In this document: positions 2,946 to 41,824 of the stretch, in pieces
Layout of the letters: each line of letters opens with the position of its first letter
Numbering within the stretch: position 1 is the stretch's first letter
Source: Gemmatimonadota bacterium
GTDB lineage: Bacteria; Gemmatimonadota; Gemmatimonadetes; Gemmatimonadales; GWC2-71-9
Reading direction: 5' to 3'
NCBI GenBank assembly: GCA_036679645.1
Contig: JAZDCY010000011.1
Span: forward strand, 32,001 to 96,000
Length of the DNA: 64,000 bases
Notes under the pieces: model-generated
Seen by the model: only the letters and a program-made list of their open reading frames with translations
Told to the model about the DNA's origin: nothing
The model's database searches: none
Made by a program: the position numbers and the translations under genes

Positions 2946-3674
2946 CTACGCGATGAGAAGAGAGTTCAGACGTTCACGCGCACGCTCCCACTCGGGCATC
3001 GCGCGGCGGAGCAGTCGATAGAACCGCCTCGAGTGGTTCATCTCGATGCGATGACAAAGCTCGTGTACCAGGACGTAATCCAGACACGAGACCGGCGCCT
3101 TGATCAGCTCGACGTTCAGGGAAACCGTCCCCTTGGCTCCGCAACTTCCCCAGCGCCGGGTCATCTCTCGAAGACGGACGAGCGGCTCGGGACGTCCCAA
3201 CCACGGTGCCTGACGGAGCACGGCAACGAGCCTACGGGGCACTACCTGTTCGGCCCGATGCCGGTACCACGCCTTAAGGAGTGCCTCGATGCGATTGCGT
3301 GACATTCGCCGAGGAGTCGTTACCCACAAGAATCCACCTGAAAGCTTCACCAACTCGGCGCCACGGCGCACCCTCAGCCGATACTGCCGGCCGAGATAAC
3401 AGTGGGTCTCACCGCTCACGTAGCGACGCGGAACGGGAAGCGGGTGGTACTTCTCGAACTGCCGCTGCTGGCGGACGATCCAACCGACCCGGGCGAGGAC
3501 CCGCTGATCCACTTTCTCCAACTCGGCGCTAACCGGCGCCACCACGGAAACGGACAGATCGGGCTCGACCGAGACGGAGAGATACCGGGTGTCGGCGAAA
3601 TGCAGGGCGTATCTGATCTGCCGTCCGTTGATCCCAACTCGCCGGATGACCCCGTCATGCACGTGCCGGCTCAC
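2946..3674 (-). CDS. YgjP/M48-family zinc metallo-hydrolase associated with type I RM
   Basis: GETHCYLGRQY, RWGSC and YVLVHELCH (HExxH) motifs; GTG start overlaps hsdR stop (GTGA). Confidence 0.85.
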   Translation of the reverse strand: MSRHVHDGVIRRVGINGRQIRYALHFADTRYLSVSVEPDLSVSVVAPVSAELEKVDQRVLARVGWIVRQQRQFEKYHPLPVPRRYVSGETHCYLGRQYRLRVRRGAELVKLSGGFLWVTTPRRMSRNRIEALLKAWYRHRAEQVVPRRLVAVLRQAPWLGRPEPLVRLREMTRRWGSCGAKGTVSLNVELIKAPVSCLDYVLVHELCHRIEMNHSRRFYRLLRRAMPEWERARERLNSLLIA

Positions 3675-6600
3675 GGCTTGCGCGCCTTGGCCACATCGAG
3701 GCACCGTTCCATCACCGTGTCAATATCCTCGAGCGTCAAGGGGACGCCGTAGCGGTCCTTCAATTCGAACAGTCGGTCCTCGATGGCGTTCCGCATGCGG
3801 TTCTGTACATCGGTGTTCCGGGTCCAGTTCACCGTCCGTAGCTCTTCCACGATCCTGTCGATGTCGAGTGCGACCTCAGCACCTAGCGTATCTATGTCGA
3901 TACTGTCGGTCCCGTAGCTCAACACGCTTTCGCGCACGACACCGTATAGGGCCCTCGCATCGGGAGCATAGCGGACTGGCTCCGGGACGGTATCCCCCGA
4001 GCGGTCACGCACCTGCCCGCTGATTTCCTGAACGCGATTGAAATACTCGACATCTGACAGACGCCGCTCCCGAAAAGCCCGAATGGTCTCCTCGAGTAGA
4101 TCCGAGAATCGCCTGTAATACGCCGGATCCTCCTCCCAGCGCTCCTTGATTGTCTGTCTCGTGCGGTACGCAATCGTGTCCGCCTTACCGCCGGGCGTGT
4201 CGACCTTCTCGACCTCCCGCGCAAAGGCCTCCTGATCGAAGATGTTCACCAGGTCGGTGAGTTGTTCGACTTCTCCGGTCCCGACGTGCATGTCCAACAA
4301 CCGCTGGATGCGCGGCTCGTAGTCCTTGAACTCGATCTTCTCGGCGTAGCGCCGTTGCACCGAGGCACGCAGCGCCATGAAGAACTTCAGGTCATCCCTG
4401 TACTTCTGGACCTTCTTCTCCGGCGTTTCTTCCAGGAACTTCACGGTCGACAGCGCGACCTGCAGCGTGCGGGCGTACGCCGAGAGCCGTTCCTTGAACT
4501 CCGCCCGCAGGACCGGGTCGGCGAGAACGCGCTCGTACTCCTCTTCGTCCCGCTTGTTCAGTACCGTCTTGAAGACATCCCACAGGTCGGAGTGAAGCTG
4601 AGGGAGCTTGGCGATCTCGAGGGAAACATCGGTCAGCGTGTCTTCCAAGTCTTCCTGGTCGAACTCAGGCAGGCCGCCGTAGAGGTCGAGCGCCTTCTCC
4701 AGATCGTGGAGTACGCCGGCGTAGTCGATGACGTATCCGAAGTCTTTCCCCTCGTAGACGCGGTTAACCCTGGCGATGGCCTGGAGTAGCGAATGGTCCT
4801 TCAGCGGTCGCGTGAGGTACAGCACGACATTCCGCGGCGCGTCGAACCCCGTGAGCAGCTTGGCTACCACGATGATGATGTCGGGCTCAGGACCGTGCTT
4901 GAAGGCGCCGATCAGCTGTTCGTTGTACTCGGTCTCGGATCCGTACCGCTCCATCATCTTGCGCCAGAACTTGACTACTTCTTCGACGTTCTCCTCCAGT
5001 ACATCGACTTCGCCCTCGCGATCGTCGGGCGCGGAGATCAGCACCTCGGAGGTCACTCTGCCGCACTCGTCCAGGTGTTTCTTGTACAGCAGGGCGGTGC
5101 GCTTGTCGGGAGCCACGAGCTGCCCCTTGAATCGCGTGTCCTTCCACGCGTTGGCGAAGTGCGCGCTCAGGTCCCACGCGATGGTCGCGATCTTCTGTTC
5201 GGCTTTGTCGAGCTGGGCGGTGGAGCTGAACTTCTTCTTGAGATCCGCCGCTTGGTCCTTGGAGAGGGTAGCCGTGATCCTGTCGAACCAGCGATCGATC
5301 TGCTCCTTGTCCACCATCTGCGGCACGTAACGCCCCTCGTAGAGCAGGGGAACCACCGATTTGTCTTCAACCGCTTGCCGAATCGTATAAACCGGGGGGA
5401 TCAACCCGCCGAACTGTCGCACGGTGCTCTTCTCGCGCGTCATGATCGGCGTCCCGGTGAAGCCGAGGAAGCAGGCGTTGGGGAGCACACGCCGCATGCG
5501 GGCGTGGATTGGCCCATACTGGCCGCGGTGGCTCTCGTCGACCATCACGAAAATGTCGGGGCTGGTGAGTTTGAGGCCCTTGGTCGCCACCGCGGTCTCG
5601 AACTTGTCGATCACGGTCGTGACGACCATGTGTTTTTCACTCTTGAGCAGCTCGACGAAGTGCTTGCCCGTTCGCGCCCGCTGGGGTTCGAACCCGCAGT
5701 AGCGGAATGTATCCCGTATCTGCTTGTCGAGGTCGATGCGGTCGGTGACGAGAACCACCTTCTTGTTTGCCCCGACAATTTCCTCGGCGATCGCAGCGGC
5801 GAGCATGACCATCGTGAGTGACTTGCCGCTACCCTGGGTGTGCCACACCACGCCGCCGGGCCGGGTGCCGTCGGCACTAGGCCGAGCGACGCGCACCATG
5901 GTCTGCTTGACACAGAAGTACTGCTGGTAGCGGGCGATCTTTTTCTGGCCGCCGTCGTACACCACGAACCGTCGCATCAGTTCGAGCATGCGTTCCGGGC
6001 GACACAGGCTCACCAGCGTCCCGTCCTGCACCGTCGGCTCGCGGCCGGACTCGGAGAGCGCGTCGAAATGGCGGCGCACGTAGCGGAAGCGGTTAGCGAA
6101 CAGACGCTCCATTTGGTCTGAAGGCAACGGCCTATTGACTGCCTCATCGAGCGTCGCTTCGTCCAGGTCCTCTCGCCACACCGCCCAGAACGGCTTGGGT
6201 GTTCCCACCGTCCCATACAGCGCTTCGTTCTTAGAAATCGCGAACAACAGTTGGGCGTAGAGGAAGAGCCGGGGGATGTACTCGTTCTTCTGGTTCCGGA
6301 TCTGTTGTGAGATCGCCTGGTCCATGGGGTCGTCCAGATCCGGCCGCTTGCACTCGATCACTGCCATGGGAATCCCGTTCACGAACAGGACGATGTCCGG
6401 CCGACACGTGTCCGTGCTGCCGGTACGCTCGACCTCGAACTCCTCGGTTACGTGGAACGCGTTGTTCCCGGTGTGTCCCCAATCGATGTACTGAAGCGGG
6501 AACCCTCGTGTATCGCCGAGTATGCTTTGCTGCAGGGATTTGCCCAGCCGGAGCAGGTCGTAGACCTTCTCGCTGGTGCGCACCAGGCCGTCGATGGGAA

Positions 6601-6859
6601 TGTCCTCCAGCGCCTCGACGGCGGTGCGGATGTTCCCCTCCGAGAACGGCCATTCTCTTCCCTTATAGCGAATGCGATTCAGCTCGCGGAGCTTGGGTGC
6701 CAGAATGCCTTCCAACAGCACCCGGCGGGCACGCCCTCCCCGCAGTTCACGGGCCTCATCCGCTGTCAGATACTCCCACCCGAGGTTCTGTAACACCTGG
6801 AGCGCCGGGACCTGGGATATGTGGTCCTCTTTGAAGAGCGGAGTCGCCGAGTCGGTGAT
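3671..6859 (-). CDS. hsdR: Type I restriction endonuclease subunit R
   Basis: RPDIVLFVNGIPMAVIECK nuclease motif, HTQGSGKS Walker A, DESHR DEAD-like box, QAIARVNR. First canonical start is GTG 6796, but HsdR-like residues extend to about 6859. Confidence 0.95.
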   Translation of the reverse strand: MTDSATPLFKEDHISQVPALQVLQNLGWEYLTADEARELRGGRARRVLLEGILAPKLRELNRIRYKGREWPFSEGNIRTAVEALEDIPIDGLVRTSEKVYDLLRLGKSLQQSILGDTRGFPLQYIDWGHTGNNAFHVTEEFEVERTGSTDTCRPDIVLFVNGIPMAVIECKRPDLDDPMDQAISQQIRNQKNEYIPRLFLYAQLLFAISKNEALYGTVGTPKPFWAVWREDLDEATLDEAVNRPLPSDQMERLFANRFRYVRRHFDALSESGREPTVQDGTLVSLCRPERMLELMRRFVVYDGGQKKIARYQQYFCVKQTMVRVARPSADGTRPGGVVWHTQGSGKSLTMVMLAAAIAEEIVGANKKVVLVTDRIDLDKQIRDTFRYCGFEPQRARTGKHFVELLKSEKHMVVTTVIDKFETAVATKGLKLTSPDIFVMVDESHRGQYGPIHARMRRVLPNACFLGFTGTPIMTREKSTVRQFGGLIPPVYTIRQAVEDKSVVPLLYEGRYVPQMVDKEQIDRWFDRITATLSKDQAADLKKKFSSTAQLDKAEQKIATIAWDLSAHFANAWKDTRFKGQLVAPDKRTALLYKKHLDECGRVTSEVLISAPDDREGEVDVLEENVEEVVKFWRKMMERYGSETEYNEQLIGAFKHGPEPDIIIVVAKLLTGFDAPRNVVLYLTRPLKDHSLLQAIARVNRVYEGKDFGYVIDYAGVLHDLEKALDLYGGLPEFDQEDLEDTLTDVSLEIAKLPQLHSDLWDVFKTVLNKRDEEEYERVLADPVLRAEFKERLSAYARTLQVALSTVKFLEETPEKKVQKYRDDLKFFMALRASVQRRYAEKIEFKDYEPRIQRLLDMHVGTGEVEQLTDLVNIFDQEAFAREVEKVDTPGGKADTIAYRTRQTIKERWEEDPAYYRRFSDLLEETIRAFRERRLSDVEYFNRVQEISGQVRDRSGDTVPEPVRYAPDARALYGVVRESVLSYGTDSIDIDTLGAEVALDIDRIVEELRTVNWTRNTDVQNRMRNAIEDRLFELKDRYGVPLTLEDIDTVMERCLDVAKARKP

Positions 6860-6866
6860 CGGAATC

Positions 6867-8114
6867 TCAGGCCGGCACCCTGACCTTGCCGGTCAGGAGC
6901 AGCTCCATGACGCCGCGGCGTTGGCGGTCGAGGACGTCTCTCAGCCTCTCGAGGTACCGGATTTCACGCTCTAAGCAGTCCGCAAAGTCGGCGATCGCGG
7001 CCTGCTCCGCCTTAGGAGGTAATCGAATGTAGATCTTCGAGAGGGCCTGCGGATTCAGTCTCTTGGCTTTCCGGCCGCCTTTCGTGAGTCCGATCTGCCG
7101 AAGGTAGAACCATGGCTGCGTCGCGAGACGGACAAGCCATCCGACATCGACTTCATCAGCAACGTCGAAGGCGGGTAGATCCAGTGTCGTCTCGTAACCG
7201 TCCAGCTCTTCCGGGACGATGCCGCATGCACCATTCAGAAAATCGAGCTTGCTATAAATGAACTGCCCAGCAGATCGACGGTAGTACTTGGTGTTTGCGC
7301 TACCTGGACGCCGGCTAGCGGACGCAACTACGCCCTTGCCGTACAGACGAATGGTAAGCCGTCGCGCATGACGGCCGTCAGACGACGATACGCGGCTCTC
7401 CGTGAGCAGGTCCCCCATTGGATGGGGCACCCATTCTTCCCCGAACTCCTTGAACCGTCGCTTGCCCGTCAGCAGTTGCTGCATGAGGCCGCGCTTGAAC
7501 CGGCGCTTGGCGTCGATTAGGGCCGTGAGCTGTGAATCCAGGAGTTCATGTATTGCTTGGAGCTGGCCGATTCGACGCTGATCGTCTACCGGAGGAACTG
7601 CGACCTTCATGGACGCAAGCCGCCTCCTAGACAACTTCTTCATGCTACCGCTTGTCCCGGCAGCCCGGGCTACTATCTCCCGTCGAGCACGTTCGCCACG
7701 CAGATATGCAGAGAGCCAACGCGGCTCTATCCCTTCGATCACCTCCATGGCCCACATGAGATCGGGGAGGTGGAGGTTTGGATAGTCTCGGTCTACATAT
7801 GCTGTAAGCCCCACGAGGTTTGCGGTGTTCGACCGTGTAATGAGGATCCACCCCGCCTTGATTGGTGGACCGAGTGGTCCACCGCGCTCCGGTCGGACAG
7901 CCTTGTTCTCGAGAGGCCGGAAAGTTCCGTTTGTCACAGCGCTGAGCTTCAGTATTCCATGCTCGCCAACATTCGTAGTACGCTCTTCACATGGAAGACT
8001 TACACCCCCGCGGAACGTTCTGACGAGGTCACCTAGTGTGGAGGTGGTCCATCCCCCGAGCGGTTCCGGGTCCGAGGTTGGTGGGGTGCCGACTAGCGGC
8101 CCGGCGCTAGACAA
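6867..8114 (-). CDS. hsdS: Type I RM specificity subunit S (two TRDs)
   Basis: Two TRDs followed by VPPVDDQRRI and LPPKAEQAAI; KRGLMQQLLTGK and ELLLTGKVRV spacer helices. Confidence 0.93.
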   Translation of the reverse strand: MSSAGPLVGTPPTSDPEPLGGWTTSTLGDLVRTFRGGVSLPCEERTTNVGEHGILKLSAVTNGTFRPLENKAVRPERGGPLGPPIKAGWILITRSNTANLVGLTAYVDRDYPNLHLPDLMWAMEVIEGIEPRWLSAYLRGERARREIVARAAGTSGSMKKLSRRRLASMKVAVPPVDDQRRIGQLQAIHELLDSQLTALIDAKRRFKRGLMQQLLTGKRRFKEFGEEWVPHPMGDLLTESRVSSSDGRHARRLTIRLYGKGVVASASRRPGSANTKYYRRSAGQFIYSKLDFLNGACGIVPEELDGYETTLDLPAFDVADEVDVGWLVRLATQPWFYLRQIGLTKGGRKAKRLNPQALSKIYIRLPPKAEQAAIADFADCLEREIRYLERLRDVLDRQRRGVMELLLTGKVRVPA

Positions 8115-9603
8115 CCCCTAATCCTCTCAAGCGCTGCGCAATCAGGTCGCGGGTCTGTTCAAGCTCGGACTGGATGGACTCGATCTCGGCTTGCACCGCA
8201 GCGAGATCGACCTCCTCTTGCTCCTCGAAGGTGTCCACGTAGCGGGCGACGTTCAGGTTGAACTCGTTCTTCCTGATTTCATCGATCGTCGCCCGGTGGG
8301 CATACTTATCGACCGATTTCCGTGCGCGGAACACGGTCACGATCTTGTCGATATCTTCCGGCCGCAATCGGTTCTGGTTCTTTTCGTCCTCGTACTCCGA
8401 GCTGGCATCGATGAACAACACGTCCGTGTTGTCGCGGCCTTTGCGGAAGATCAGAATAGCGGCCGGGATGCCGGTGCCAAAGAAGAGGTTCGCCGGGAGT
8501 CCAATCACCGCATCCAGCAGGTTCTCGTCGATCAACTTCGTGCGGATCTTCCCCTCGGCGCCCCCGCGGAAGAGCACACCGTGCGGCACGATCACGCCAA
8601 CCCTACCACCGTCTTCCACCGCCGTCTCCACCATGTGGCTGATGAACGCGTAGTCGGCTTTTGATTTAGGGGGCGTGCCGCGATGAAAGCGGTGGAACGG
8701 ATCGCCTGGCGCGTTCTCGGCGCCCCACTTGTCCAATGAGAACGGGGGATTCGCCACGACCACGTCGAACTTCTTCAGCCGGTCACCCTCGACGAGCTTG
8801 GGGCTGTTGAGCGTGTCGCCCCACTCGATCCGCGCGCTATCCACGCCGTGCAGAAACATGTTCATCTTGCACAGCGCCCACGTACCCCCGTTCACCTCTT
8901 GTCCGAAGACGAAGTAATCTTCGCTGCCGACCTCGGCGGCGACCCGGATCAGCAATGAGCCGGAGCCACACGTCGGATCGCAGATCGTCTCGCCCGGCTT
9001 GGGCGCCAGCAGTTTGGCCAACAGAATAGAGACCTCGGCGGGCGTGTAAAACTCGCCGCCTTTCTTGCCGGCGTCGCTGGCAAAATGTCCAATGAGGTAC
9101 TCGTAGGCGTTGCCGATAACATCCAAGTTCCCGATCCGCGATGGCCGCAGATCCAGCACGGGATTGGCAAAGTCGTGGAGCAGGTTCTTGAGACGGCGGT
9201 TCCGGTCCTTGGTCTCGCCCAGGTACGGCTCACTGTTGAAGTCCACGTTCCGGAACACGTTTTCCAGCTTGGTCCGGTTGGCATCCTCGATTCTCTCGAG
9301 CGCAATGTTTATCAACTCGCCGACGTTCGGGGCATCCCGCCGGTCGTAGAGATAGGAGAAGTGCGATTCCTCGGGCACCACGAACCGCTCCCGGCCCAGG
9401 GCACGCTCAACCCGCACCTGGTCACCGCCGTACTTTTTCTCCAGCGCGGCGCGTTTGTCGGTCCACACGTCACTCACGTACTTCACGAACAACATGACCA
9501 GCAGGTAGTCCTTGTATTGCGCCGGGTCGAGCGCACCGCGAAAGGTGTCACAGGCTCGCCAGAGGGTATCGTTGATCTCCTTCTGCGAGATCTTGTCAGT
9601 CAT
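8107..9603 (-). CDS. hsdM: Type I RM methyltransferase subunit M (m6A)
   Basis: GEFYTP, DPTCGSG SAM-binding motif, NPPF catalytic motif; ATG 9603 (MTDKISQ). Confidence 0.96.
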   Translation of the reverse strand: MTDKISQKEINDTLWRACDTFRGALDPAQYKDYLLVMLFVKYVSDVWTDKRAALEKKYGGDQVRVERALGRERFVVPEESHFSYLYDRRDAPNVGELINIALERIEDANRTKLENVFRNVDFNSEPYLGETKDRNRRLKNLLHDFANPVLDLRPSRIGNLDVIGNAYEYLIGHFASDAGKKGGEFYTPAEVSILLAKLLAPKPGETICDPTCGSGSLLIRVAAEVGSEDYFVFGQEVNGGTWALCKMNMFLHGVDSARIEWGDTLNSPKLVEGDRLKKFDVVVANPPFSLDKWGAENAPGDPFHRFHRGTPPKSKADYAFISHMVETAVEDGGRVGVIVPHGVLFRGGAEGKIRTKLIDENLLDAVIGLPANLFFGTGIPAAILIFRKGRDNTDVLFIDASSEYEDEKNQNRLRPEDIDKIVTVFRARKSVDKYAHRATIDEIRKNEFNLNVARYVDTFEEQEEVDLAAVQAEIESIQSELEQTRDLIAQRLRGLGVV

Positions 9604-10228
9604 GGGAGTCCTCCTGCGCATTCAGACGCAGGTTGTCGATGAGCATCTGTCCGATCATCCGGTGGGACGTATCGGTGGCTTGGGCTAGGGCGCTCCTGAG
9701 ATCGCGCTCCCGCGTCAGCAGTTCGGCAAGTTCCGCGATCTCGCGCTGCGTCGCTACCGGCGGTACGACGATCTGCATGTTTTCGAAAACCTTCCGCTGC
9801 ACGATGGGCGTGCCGGCCCCGGTCCGGATCTGTTCGATGATCGCCTGCGCGGGCTTCTGATTCAGGTACCACGCCAGATACCGGCCGTCCAGGCCCTCGC
9901 GCGGGCGCAGGATGTAGAAACTGACGGGCGGCATCGTGCGGTCCGGCACTTCCCGCATCACCCAGGCTCGGTTCTGGATACCCCGGGACATGAACAGCAC
10001 GTCGCCGCCTGCCAGGTGGTACCTGCTCGTGTCCCGGGCACCCGGGTCCATGCGGAGTTCGTGCGCCGGCTCGTACACGTACGGCACGCCGTCTTCCAGG
10101 TGGCGAGAAAGCACGAGCTGGTGGGTCCCATCCGGATCGTGGTCCATCCGGCCGCGAACGGAGAAGCCGGGGAGAACCTCGGCGCAGTCACCGAGTGGCA
10201 TCACGCGGGTTGCCTCGGCTCTCCCCAT
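9596..10228 (-). CDS. Half-size HsdS-like protein (single TRD)
   Basis: GDVLF...YLAWYLNQ...VPPVATQREIAEL matches one HsdS half; overlaps hsdM start. Confidence 0.75.
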   Translation of the reverse strand: MGRAEATRVMPLGDCAEVLPGFSVRGRMDHDPDGTHQLVLSRHLEDGVPYVYEPAHELRMDPGARDTSRYHLAGGDVLFMSRGIQNRAWVMREVPDRTMPPVSFYILRPREGLDGRYLAWYLNQKPAQAIIEQIRTGAGTPIVQRKVFENMQIVVPPVATQREIAELAELLTRERDLRSALAQATDTSHRMIGQMLIDNLRLNAQEDSHD

Positions 10229-10239
10229 TGCTCCTTCCT

Positions 10240-10569
10240 TTACTCGCCGTTACAGGGCGGCTTGTAGTTGTCGATCAGATCCCGCTCGATCGTCAGCCGC
10301 CGCTGCTGGGACGATTCGGTACAGACGCCGAGGTGCGTCTTCCCGTTGCGGTCGAAGCACTGCGCTTTGTGGTGACTGTCGAACCGCTCACTGAGGTTCC
10401 CGGTCTCCCCGATGTAGAGGACATCATAGCGGTCATCCGTACGGAGCTTGAGCACCGCATAGACGCCGCCGATGGGTTTGCACTCCGTCCTCCATGGGTA
10501 GACCGTGAACTCGTACGCGGCGCCCGAGCGCCCCTTCAGGACAACGGTGGTACTGGTACTGGTGGGCAT
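10240..10569 (-). CDS. Small stand-alone GIY-YIG nuclease-family protein
   Basis: GGVYAV...VLYIGETGNLSERF, IERDLI and PPCN motifs; GGAGGG RBS before ATG 10569. Confidence 0.8.
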   Translation of the reverse strand: MPTSTSTTVVLKGRSGAAYEFTVYPWRTECKPIGGVYAVLKLRTDDRYDVLYIGETGNLSERFDSHHKAQCFDRNGKTHLGVCTESSQQRRLTIERDLIDNYKPPCNGE

Positions 10570-10644
10570 ATGGCCCTCCGTCAGGATGTGGGACCGACTG
10601 GACGGCCACCGGCTCGACGCGTAGACTTCTCTTACCATGTGCTC

Positions 10645-10721
10645 GGCCTGGGACGCTTATGTCGACCCTGGTTGAGAGGTGGCGAGAGGCCCGTGCTACT
10701 AACACGGGTCTTCTCATTTTT
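10645..10721 (+). ncRNA. Candidate cis-antisense sRNA (ptaRNA1-like)
   Basis: TACCAT -10-like hexamer at 10633-10638; GGACGCTTATGTC...GGTTGAGAGGTGGC body; terminal hairpin plus T-run; antisense to the GIY-YIG leader. The family resemblance is from memory and was not searched. Confidence 0.5.
10684..10721 (+). terminator. Intrinsic terminator-like hairpin
   Basis: GAGAGGCCCGTG-ctactaa-CACGGGTCTTCTC followed by ATTTTT. Confidence 0.65.
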
Positions 10722-10884
10722 CCAGCAGAATGGCAGTACTCGGCTGGATATGCGTTGAAATGTACCGTTCGCAGGATGTATGTCAAATTTCTGTTGCGGT
10801 ATGGGATTCTGCAAAACAATTTGCAATTGACTTATTGACAAGTATCGGCGACATTATTGACGCACTTTGGTTTCCAGGACCGCC

Positions 10885-12234
10885 ATGTCGCCACCCATCT
10901 CGTTCACTCCAGCTCTCTCGCCCGATCAGATCGCCGAACTGACCCGCCTGCTCGGAGAAATCGACGAGTTCAAGGGCCACTGGCGCAAGCTCGGGGAGAT
11001 CCGAGCCGAACGCCTGGCGTCGCTCAGGCAGGTGACCACCATTGAGTCGGCAGGCAGTTCCACCCGCATCGAGGGCGCCCAGCTCAGCGACGACGAGGTC
11101 AAGCTCGTCCTCCAGGGGCTACGCGTAGACAGTTTCCGCGAGCGCGATGAGGGCGAGGTCCGGGGCTACGGCGAGTTACTCCAGACCATCTTCGACAACT
11201 ACCGCGAGATCCCGGTCACCGAGAACTACATCAAGCAGCTCCATAAGATGCTGCTCGCCCACGTAGAGAAGGACGCCTGGCACCGCGGGGAGTACAAGAA
11301 GCAACCCAACCCGGTGGAGGCTCGTCACCCTGATGGGCGGGTAGAGGTGATCTTTGAGACCGCATCACCGTTCGATACGCCCCGCCTGATGGCGGAACTC
11401 ATCGCGGCAACAACGCAGAGCCTCGACGGCGAGCATATCCATCCACTGGTCACCATTGCCCGCCTCGTCGTCGAGTTCCTCGCCATTCACCCGTTCCAGG
11501 ATGGCAACGGACGGCTATCAAGGGCACTCACCGCGTTGCTGATGCTGCGCGCCGGCTACGAGTACGTCCCGTACGCATCCGTTGAGCGGATCATTGAAGA
11601 CAACAAGACGGAGTACTATCACGCGCTGCGTATGTCGCAGACCGGAATGTCCGACGATCCCTCGGATTTCGGCGACTGGCTGCTGTTTTTTCTCCGGGCA
11701 CTGCAAACACAAAAGCGGATTCTCGCCGGCAAACTCGAGGTCGAACGTTCAATCGTCCGCCTCAATGACATCCAGGTGCGTGCCCTGGAACTGGTCGAGA
11801 AGCATGGGCGCAGCACCAGCACGGACGTAGCCACCGCACTCTCGATCAGCACCCGGTCTGCGCGGTATCACCTCGGCATGCTTCTGGAACGGGGCCTCGT
11901 ACAGGCGCACGGAGAGCGACGCGGACGCTACTACACACGAGGATTGGGCACCAACGAAGGGATGCTCAGGGATCCGCGATCGAAAAACGCGGCCATCCTG
12001 GCAGAAATCCTCGCACGTGGAGGGTCGGTTACACAGAAAGAACTGATCGAACTGGTCGACGCTGAGCGTGCCGACCGCCGGATCGTCGGCTCGCTGCACG
12101 GTCGCCGGCAGGCACACCTGCAACGCGATCACAAGACCGGGAGAAGCAGGCTCACGGCTCGCGGAAGAGAGGTGGCGGAGCAGTACGTCTTTGCCAGACG
12201 ACTTTCCAAGGAGCCGGCCACCGAAACGACGTGA
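10885..12234 (+). CDS. Fic family protein with C-terminal winged-HTH domain(s)
   Basis: HPFQDGNGRLSR Fic motif; N-terminal STRIEG inhibitory motif (class II); wHTH (STDVATALSISTRSARYHLGMLLERGLV...GRYY). Confidence 0.9.
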   Translation: MSPPISFTPALSPDQIAELTRLLGEIDEFKGHWRKLGEIRAERLASLRQVTTIESAGSSTRIEGAQLSDDEVKLVLQGLRVDSFRERDEGEVRGYGELLQTIFDNYREIPVTENYIKQLHKMLLAHVEKDAWHRGEYKKQPNPVEARHPDGRVEVIFETASPFDTPRLMAELIAATTQSLDGEHIHPLVTIARLVVEFLAIHPFQDGNGRLSRALTALLMLRAGYEYVPYASVERIIEDNKTEYYHALRMSQTGMSDDPSDFGDWLLFFLRALQTQKRILAGKLEVERSIVRLNDIQVRALELVEKHGRSTSTDVATALSISTRSARYHLGMLLERGLVQAHGERRGRYYTRGLGTNEGMLRDPRSKNAAILAEILARGGSVTQKELIELVDAERADRRIVGSLHGRRQAHLQRDHKTGRSRLTARGREVAEQYVFARRLSKEPATETT

Positions 12235-13596: not shown

Positions 13597-13677
13597 GTCA
13601 AGCACCCCGCTCCCTCGGTAACGTAGCCGTACAGACACGTTCTGCGAAGCCAGTGCCGCTTCGCGTATATTCCGGAA

Positions 13678-15091
<1,414 letters not shown>

Positions 15092-41434: not shown

Positions 41435-41824
41435 GGAGGTGGGCGGTGGGGCGAGACGGTCGCGGCTCGTCATTTGGCGAGTCGAGGAAAGTCCGAGCTC
41501 CTCAGGGCAGGCTGCCAGGTAACACCTGGGCGTCGCGAGGCGACGGAAAGGGCCACAGAAAACAAACCGCCCGCGGAAACGTGGGTAAGGGTGAAAAGGT
41601 GGGGTAAGAGCCCACCGCACGCCTGGCAACAGCGCGTGGCACGGTAACCCCCAGCCGGAGCAAGGCCAAATAGGCGGTGAGGTTCGGCCCGAACCACTTG
41701 AGCCGCGGGTAGGCCGCACGAGGTGGCGAGCGATCGTCATCCCAGAGAGATGACCGTCCCCCTAGGGGCCTTTGGCGTCTAGTGCAGGAACAGAACTCGG
41801 CTTACGGCTCCGCCGCTCGTCTCC
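41435..41824 (+). ncRNA. rnpB: RNase P RNA, bacterial class A
   Basis: GAGGAAAGTCC, GGTAAGAGCCCACCGC, GGAGCAAGGCCAAATAGG, ACAGAACTCGGCTTAC; complementary ends; boundaries approximate. Confidence 0.95.

Follow-up and report, generated by a model that had tools for sequence, protein, structure and literature searches.

The leader of a small GIY-YIG nuclease gene, which heads a type I RM operon in the window (the whole stretch of DNA analysed, 64,000 nucleotides from a Gemmatimonadota bacterium), very probably encodes a short antisense RNA on its opposite strand. Cis-antisense control of this nuclease had been proposed in a first-pass annotation and is supported by conserved convergent promoters, a structure that is specific to the strand, linkage to the operon and a leader that travels with the head nuclease; the -10 box, the RNA length and the ptaRNA1- and SymR-like layout proposed with it found no support. 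The RNA probably acts on translation of the nuclease, by burial of its RBS. That the module is an antisense-gated, RM-linked nuclease of the type I toxin-antitoxin (TA) kind, serving as a suicide or addiction toxin when the RNA runs down, is a reading on which we consider the balance to be even. The RNA family is absent from Rfam.

The operon, its head nuclease and the antisense element

On the minus strand, the genes follow each other in the order nuclease, half-hsdS, hsdM, hsdS and hsdR, with a place for an insert between hsdM and the full-length hsdS. The nuclease gene (positions 10240–10569) is followed by the half-hsdS gene (9596–10228), which has its own Shine-Dalgarno (SD) sequence 12 nt past the nuclease stop codon and encodes an unusually conserved half-size HsdS of 210 amino acids with a single TRD, a candidate autorepressor or symmetric specificity subunit. 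Then come hsdM (8107–9621), the full-length hsdS (6867–8114) and hsdR (3671–6796), all three present and open as in a type I RM system, and the operon ends with the gene of a YgjP-like metallopeptidase (2946–3704), also on the minus strand. A divergent Fic-HTH gene (10867–12234, plus strand) is a neighbour outside the conserved module. In homologous loci L018, L021, L024, L026, L030, L091 and L093–L095, the inserts between hsdM and hsdS vary and include KilA-N, Bro-N, RhuM-family and PDDEXK nuclease genes. The window's own genome contains a second cluster, with Fic, hsdM and hsdS-like genes in that order (G000:C87:11163-14536), and further hsdM-like genes on contigs C7 and C18. Two ordinary RNA elements are present on the plus strand of the window, a TPP riboswitch before thiC (13672–13772) and the class A RNase P RNA (41443–41820). 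Of 400 other genomes in this phylum, 4 contain half-hsdS, and the nuclease gene was found in none of the 60 relatives searched; such rarity of the pair is as expected for a putative mobile island.

The head nuclease, family A, consists of 109 amino acids. A start at 10638, giving 132 residues, was rejected; the ATG at 10569 is most likely the start, because it is preceded by the SD sequence GGAGGG (10574–10579, minus strand) and the homologues start there. The AF2 model (pLDDT 93) has a UvrC-N-like fold. Its nine top PDB matches are UvrC GIY-YIG domains (best E-value 1.9e-3, probability 1.0), and in a profile comparison the nuclease matches 1ycz with an E-value of 7e-5. The Pfam GIY-YIG score, 21.2 bits, is slightly under the cut-off of 22.6 bits, while an NCBIfam search at E ≤ 1 returned UvrC-type matches only, with no match to the ptaRNA1-family toxin. 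Residues Y37, Y52, G54, R62, H66, E95 and N107 align with those of UvrC, are kept in at least 90% of 144 sequences and are all intact in the window; we take them to be the catalytic positions. Since the GIY-YIG fold and the catalytic set (Tyr, Tyr-x-Gly, Arg, Glu and Asn) are both intact, we infer that the protein is an active nuclease. The proposal that it is a conditional toxin weighs, on comparative grounds, about equally for and against.

The strong hairpin with a T-run described in the first-pass annotation is present on the plus strand of the leader and forms the predicted intrinsic terminator (10684–10721), with its stem at 10684–10715 and the U-run at 10717–10721; the non-coding 33-mer quoted there is located at 10651–10683. 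It also holds that this terminator has no plus-strand coding sequence to terminate, the sole plus-strand reading frame across it being one of 187 amino acids opposite the GIY-YIG gene, and the Fic gene beginning only at 10867. The hexamer TACCAT at 10633, put forward as the -10 box, occurs ten times in the window against 8.4 expected, and a TAnnnT hexamer occupies its slot in just one of the 33 leaders listed (of 41), that of the window itself; TACCAT was rejected as a -10 box and constitutes the 5' end of the predicted RNA instead. The conserved promoter (10599–10627, plus strand) has its -35 box TGGACG at 10599–10604, a spacer of 17 nt and its -10 box TAGACT at 10622–10627, and is found at the same position in 21 of 21 leader loci. 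The predicted RNA is therefore about 88 nt long, from about 10634 to 10721 on the plus strand, and not about 75 nt. According to folding and comparison, it is made up of a first hairpin (10635–10682) and the terminator; the 90-nt unit 10633–10722 folds as two hairpins with an energy of -42.4 kcal/mol (z = -4.4), and one of 200 shuffled sequences was as good. None of the 33 leaders listed (of 41) encodes a peptide in the antisense RNA, and no second copy of the element was found in the window's own genome.

A search of the region 10200–10900 against Rfam gave nothing at E ≤ 10, so that a resemblance to ptaRNA1 and SymR, suggested in the first-pass annotation, found no backing, and 18 homologue loci gave sub-threshold, terminator-driven matches only. 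Covariance-model matches above 47 bits for ptaRNA1 (RF01811) or above 61 bits for symE/SymR (RF01809) were not obtained; in five of five genomes with the element, with 150 candidates scored per genome, nothing exceeded the cut-offs of these two models.

The operon is predicted to be transcribed from a sense promoter TTGACA-16-TACATT (10759–10786, minus strand), with a start near 10752 and a leader of about 183 nt that spans the whole antisense RNA. The overlap on which antisense control depends is thus predicted, as the mRNA would begin above 10721 and cover 10634–10721; the RNA would be complementary to its mRNA, as in type I TA systems, with the convergent promoters being conserved. Sense-type -35/-10 pairs are located 156–193 nt upstream of the ATG in most homologues. 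Near its 5' end, the leader contains a putative hairpin (10722–10747, minus strand), weak in the window and deduced from the homologues, with one degenerate operator-like site (GTA-N7-TCT, 10727–10739); an exact GTA-N7-TAC is present at the matching place in the leader of L013, the locus most similar to the window, from a Gemmatimonadales MAG. The predicted antisense RNA begins 65 nt upstream of the nuclease ATG and does not overlap the RBS, and in 33 of 33 leaders listed (of 41) its +1 is located 60–76 nt upstream of the start codon. Because it stops short of the start codon, it would act indirectly, by refolding of the leader.

The leader and the head nuclease in homologous loci

A genome scan yielded 33 loci, of which 28 are close. 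Half-hsdS is the next gene in 23 of these 28 and is in turn followed by hsdM in 21 of the 23, the contigs of the remaining two ending early. The element is conserved upstream of the homologues, a point on which the first-pass proposal could have failed: 20 of the 23 half-hsdS-linked nuclease loci contain the full leader, that is, the sense promoter, an A-run with hairpin, a second hairpin, the antisense -10 and -35 boxes and the RBS. In a scan that required TAnnnT and left the position free, each of the 21 leader loci had its best antisense promoter with the -10 box 48–64 nt before the ATG, and 15 of the 21 beat shuffled sequences (p ≤ 0.05; the loci are related, so that counts and p-values throughout overstate independence). 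In L030 the RNA body is kept, and a single deletion takes away the antisense promoter, the RBS and the amino-terminus of the nuclease; the leader of L031 is ambiguous. Five of the 28 loci (L033–L037), with distant family A members, have neither an RM operon nor the leader. One of these, L034, contains at about 2850–2970 a basic 37-residue reading frame 5' of the nuclease, beside an IS1595-type transposase, and has a different leader design. Cultured Pelotalea and Desulfurivibrio isolates are among the carriers (L024, L016). Locus L103 repeats L013, and L098–L100 probably repeat known loci; each was counted once.

A structure model built from proteobacterial copies, without the subgroup of the window, matches the expected place in L113, L103, L030, L023, the window, L109 and L027, and scores the window copy at an E-value of 0.14 only. 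The sequence-only RNA model misses the window copy, and model R2 at default filters misses the window, L013, L023, L027 and L032. Since the RNA models match the window weakly, homology of its copy rests on the architecture and on the 50–62% identical protein, not on the RNA sequence alone. With the RNA models alone, four strong matches were found in 151 genomes and then two in 151, and all those examined lead into a nuclease and half-hsdS; weak R2 matches in genomes, at seven of nine places, were discarded as ordinary terminators. BLASTN of the leaders of the window and L024 against plasmids gave no match, the leader pattern gave none in viral contigs, and a viral protein scan gave four weak loci, all without the leader. 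In L053, a match resembling abiF RNA is present at 39–82, about 240 nt upstream of the leader (33.5 bits, with a cut-off of 37 bits).

In metagenomes, the leader pattern matched 43 times; 11 matches, which have no terminator, RBS or downstream gene, were dropped as chance, leaving 32 true leaders. Twenty of these lead into family A, seven into a full-length family B protein, three into family-B-like stubs at contig ends, one into a truncated remnant, and one ends before the gene. Family B proteins have 116 amino acids, align with family A at the GIY-YIG motif only and have a predicted fold like the UvrC GIY-YIG domain. All seven full copies precede half-hsdS and hsdM, and their leaders are up to 90% identical to leaders of family A copies; the gene has therefore been exchanged under a kept leader. 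Locus L113, found via half-hsdS, has the same architecture with a third GIY-YIG-like family. Three unrelated GIY-YIG families are, as judged from sequences and models, exchanged in one slot.

Nineteen half-hsdS loci were found without using the leader. Two have both nuclease and leader, one the leader only, none the nuclease only and 16 neither (Fisher p = 0.018 for the association). The antisense promoter or leader is missing from L030 and L108 along with the amino-terminus of the nuclease, L108 having just the carboxy-terminal half of the nuclease and no leader; this joint loss counts, indirectly, in favour of toxicity. Locus L090 contains a leaderless nuclease between half-hsdS and hsdM, in which neither the tyrosine of YIG nor the terminal Asn is kept. 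In L029 an intact head nuclease has no leader, a point against the toxin reading. Three of three family B loci outside RM operons in a 401-genome search have no leader, one of them being frameshifted. Outside RM operons, homologues of both family A and family B are leaderless, which weakens the toxin claim and means that the leader is not always needed.

Some loci have rearranged leaders. In L061 (1621–3000), an intact leader and a truncated nuclease remnant are followed by a reading frame that by eye resembles a metallo-beta-lactamase-fold hydrolase and replaces the RM genes. Locus L109 has a leader-like antisense unit and an RBS about 250 nt upstream of half-hsdS, and no intact nuclease frame. 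About 130 nt upstream of half-hsdS in L104 (genome G309), and at the same position in L023, a shared variant of the 5' hairpin follows the sense promoter; in L104 the first terminator arm alone comes after this hairpin, which looks like a deletion of the antisense-nuclease cassette.

Of 17 half-hsdS operons that have no head nuclease, 16 have no leader either, which speaks against the antisense switch being a device that sets the timing or dosage of the RM operon, comparable to plasmid copy control. Such a device would allow a burst on entry into a new host, followed by damping via polarity and duplex cleavage, and the nuclease would be a non-lethal accessory: a nickase, or a helper in repair or restriction. 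It would account for leader and nuclease occurring together only in half-hsdS operons, with the stand-alone homologues leaderless, and for L109 and L061 keeping a leader without an intact nuclease; antisense control of RM genes is also known, for EcoRI and Eco29kI, as described in PMC12707154. A dosage device fits less well with half-hsdS having its own SD sequence, with the predicted switch acting on the RBS of the nuclease and with three unrelated nuclease families being kept in the slot, and we consider it doubtful, although of some weight.

Predicted folding of the leader and of the antisense RNA

The predicted switch involves two segments of the leader on the minus strand. Segment A (10661–10668) is the target of the antisense RNA; segment B (10590–10598) is predicted to pair with A in the ON conformer or with the SD and start codon region in the OFF conformer. 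Most free leaders are predicted to fold as a single rod, in which the antisense target pairs with segment B just 5' of the RBS. When the target is held unpaired, mimicking the duplex, segment B is freed in the prediction to pair with the SD sequence and the start codon. With the target opened, the RBS became costlier to open in 19 of the 21 leaders identified through the protein (mean shift +3.9 kcal/mol, compared with +1.2 and +0.7 in controls). The same was seen in 20 of 20 leaders identified with the DNA pattern, which does not include segment B (+4.9 kcal/mol, compared with +1.3 and +0.3). Overall, blocking of the target shifts 39 of 41 leaders towards RBS burial in silico. The leader of the window is a weak switch in these calculations, with +1.0 kcal/mol against +0.9 for a shuffled-target control; its RBS is costly to open in both states (13.7 and 14.6 kcal/mol) and its A:B conformer is 4 kcal/mol above the minimum. 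Stronger switches are predicted for homologues such as L012, L069 and L086. The leaders of L013, L018 and L028 also fail to show the predicted switch; the RBS of L013 is predicted to be buried in both states, as in the window, and the nuclease of L028 has lost the catalytic Arg too. Duplexes of segments A and B have a mean energy of -15.4 kcal/mol for cognate and -12.1 kcal/mol for non-cognate pairs, while for B with the SD and start codon region (segment C) the cognate preference is not clear on the sense strand (p = 0.06).

The proposed mechanism starts from features seen directly in the DNA, namely convergent sigma70-type promoters, the antisense terminator and the nuclease-headed order of the operon. 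Without antisense RNA, segment A would pair with B in the long rod and the RBS would be freer, a prediction with comparative support. By capturing A, the antisense RNA would free B to pair with the SD sequence and the start codon, following the logic of pSK41 RNAI, and the nuclease would be kept untranslated by the leader refolding over its RBS. The head protein, presumably active given its fold and catalytic set, would be released when the ratio of mRNA to antisense RNA rises; as triggers, and this is the weakest step, island loss, host transcription shut-off or lifted repression by half-HsdS may be considered. As the antisense RNA drains, the freed nuclease might then act as an RM-linked suicide or addiction toxin.

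Within a subgroup of 21 sequences, 95.4% of the cells are paired in the structure of the antisense RNA, and two-sided changes are present at 9 of 26 pairs, compared with 2.9 for shuffled and 2–4 for slid controls; covariation, one of the checks suggested with the first-pass annotation, is thus evident. This subgroup alignment (A6) and anchor-based tests were used in place of cross-subgroup alignments, since MAFFT across subgroups was out of register and RNAalifold on A3 and A5 missed hairpin 1. In 43 leaders, with helix registers chosen on Watson-Crick pairs only, the G-U wobbles speak for the antisense strand at the terminator (11:0) and the basal stem (59:1), and for the mRNA at the long-range A:B helix (29:5); no bias is seen in the inner rod helix (7:6). 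The wobbles thus show that both strands fold, with RNA structure under selection on each.

Strong, convergent promoters about 130 nt apart, as present here, could also interfere with each other. Collision is one role proposed for the reverse promoters of EcoRI and Eco29kI in PMC12707154, and the main effect of the reverse promoter might be to interfere with transcription, or else to attenuate it at the shared hairpin, a terminator that might work in both directions in some copies, with the shape of the RNA and the rod being minor. The wobble bias and the cognate A:B pairing, which point to selection on the RNA structure of both strands, make this rather improbable, as does the distribution of a sense-side T-rich run after the hairpin, present in 6 of the 33 leaders listed and absent from the other 27, including the window.

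The RBS of the window and of L013, predicted to be buried in both states, would be compatible with a real RNA that blocks a ribosome standby site or the reading of a leader peptide, in the manner of tisB/IstR-1 or hok/mok, and does not refold the RBS; in those systems, too, the RNA is clear of the RBS, according to PMC4147584. An upstream reading frame with an SD sequence was found in only 2 of the 33 leaders listed (of 41), on which ground a conserved leader peptide was rejected, and the complementarity of A and B co-varies, so that this type of control is hardly probable. Burial of the RBS through leader refolding remains the preferred reading. An orphan terminator or attenuator of the divergent Fic gene, with a nuclease free of antisense regulation, would suit the plus-strand unit of the window, which points to Fic at 10867, and L013, which has the same neighbour, but was rejected as very improbable, since the neighbour there changes freely from locus to locus (GreA, glyoxalase, DnaJ, ABC, gyrase and others, in both orientations), with Fic in just one homologue locus among those scanned, while the structure and its spacing from the nuclease start do not vary.

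Operator-like sites, related systems and meaning of the module

The palindrome GTA-N7-TAC is found next to the sense promoter, or overlapping it, in 21 of 42 leader loci (shuffle mean 1.5) and is located at the promoter in five of eight plasmid half-hsdS loci (shuffle mean 0.26), these eight being the ones opened of 17 matches; variants with an N8 spacer occur in further loci. The window has no exact site, just the single degenerate one described above. In the window's own genome GTA-N7-TAC is not avoided, with 362 sites compared with 253–343 for other spacers. Conservation of the recognition domain has a median of 46% for half-HsdS and 21% for full HsdS. Paired GTA-N7/8-TAC sites surround the promoters of half-hsdS and hsdM in L090–L097, L104–L106 and L108–L114 and in the leader loci, with or without the nuclease cassette, and in L093 the core of the palindrome differs. 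The sequences suggest that half-HsdS may be a general autorepressor of this RM subfamily. By analogy, it is reasonable to infer that half-HsdS would repress its own operon at GTA-N7-TAC, because single-TRD S subunits recognise split palindromes (described in PMC3874165) and AhdI is controlled by promoter methylation (described in PMC12707154).

Among known systems, the element resembles the pSK41 rep/RNAI pair, and also pT181 RNAI. As described in PMC5703833, pSK41 RNAI is a counter-transcript of about 83 nt, made up of a 5' tail and two stem-loops. It is complementary to a part of the leader that precedes the initiation region by about 100 nt, and once bound it is proposed to make the leader form a stem-loop in which the RBS is buried. 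A counter-transcript of 80–90 nt with two stem-loops upstream of the initiation region is also predicted here. The target differs: it is a nuclease heading an RM operon on a chromosomal island of Gram-negative lineages, not a plasmid Rep, and neither a RepA_N initiator target nor homology to RNAI was found, the target being GIY-YIG and Rfam giving no match.

ptaRNA1 is a short two-hairpin antisense RNA on mobile DNA. The element differs from it in having neither a match to covariance model RF01811 nor a match of its protein to the NCBIfam toxin. With symE/SymR it would share a small, cis-encoded antisense RNA that represses a small non-membrane nuclease toxin, and symE-family genes are reported near RM operons (PMC1891008, PMC4147584). 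As far as these sources describe it, SymR has its promoter inside the coding sequence and extends over the RBS and start codon, and SymE is an AbrB-fold RNase under LexA. A SymR-type layout, which had been suggested for the window, is contradicted by the distance of the RNA +1 from the ATG in all 33 leaders listed and by the GIY-YIG fold. In ralR/RalA, as in the proposed module, a DNase toxin is under RNA control; RalA pairs with a site inside the coding region and depends on Hfq, and the protein is unrelated and has a prophage context (as described in PMC4147584). By analogy, the element may be said to work like pSK41 RNAI joined to a nuclease toxin of the SymE or RalR style, and it is not a member of pSK41 RNAI, ptaRNA1 or symER.

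Antisense transcription also limits the nuclease in the RM operons of EcoRI and Eco29kI, and R.Eco29kI, itself a GIY-YIG enzyme, is among the structure matches obtained here. These are type II systems, with reverse promoters inside the REase gene and antisense transcripts overlapping the SD sequence, as PMC12707154 describes them, whereas here a discrete, terminated RNA is predicted within a type I operon whose HsdR is a separate protein. Three further systems are similar in other respects, going by the descriptions in PMC3874165, PMC12707154 and PMC12255303. In PrrC/EcoprrI, a suicide nuclease is embedded in a type I operon and is kept latent at the protein level, without an RNA; the three unrelated nucleases in the slot would argue against a PrrC-like specific contact with the RM complex. 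In RptR-RMS-M48 islands, a repressor gene heads type I RM and M48 peptidase genes, the repressor being a 79-residue protein that binds a 6-bp palindrome. The "type 1 1/2" MTase M.AhdI has a single-TRD S subunit, a split palindrome and control by promoter methylation, in a type II system. None of PrrC, RptR and AhdI combines an antisense leader, a swappable GIY-YIG nuclease and a half-HsdS. A literature search at listing level, with subscription journals and bioRxiv supplements outside its coverage, found no description of this module.

An unlikely, more far-reaching arrangement would be a guard of two layers, in which half-HsdS, alone or with HsdM, represses at GTA-N7-TAC and the antisense RNA sets the threshold on the swappable GIY-YIG nuclease. 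A phage DNA mimic titrating the methyltransferase, or a host transcription shut-off draining the RNA, would then tip the cell into DNA cutting and death. If true, restriction would here have its first known guardian gated by an RNA, and a type I operon its first case of a specificity subunit dedicated to transcriptional feedback. The module as predicted places a plasmid-style antisense switch before a defence operon in several phyla. With three nuclease families behind one switch, it would be a so far undescribed suicide or safety circuit of restriction systems. It offers an RNA family that Rfam lacks, an exchangeable GIY-YIG slot and a testable half-HsdS operator, and makes operon safety and the self-guarding of RM systems directly testable with reporter fusions and laboratory phages.
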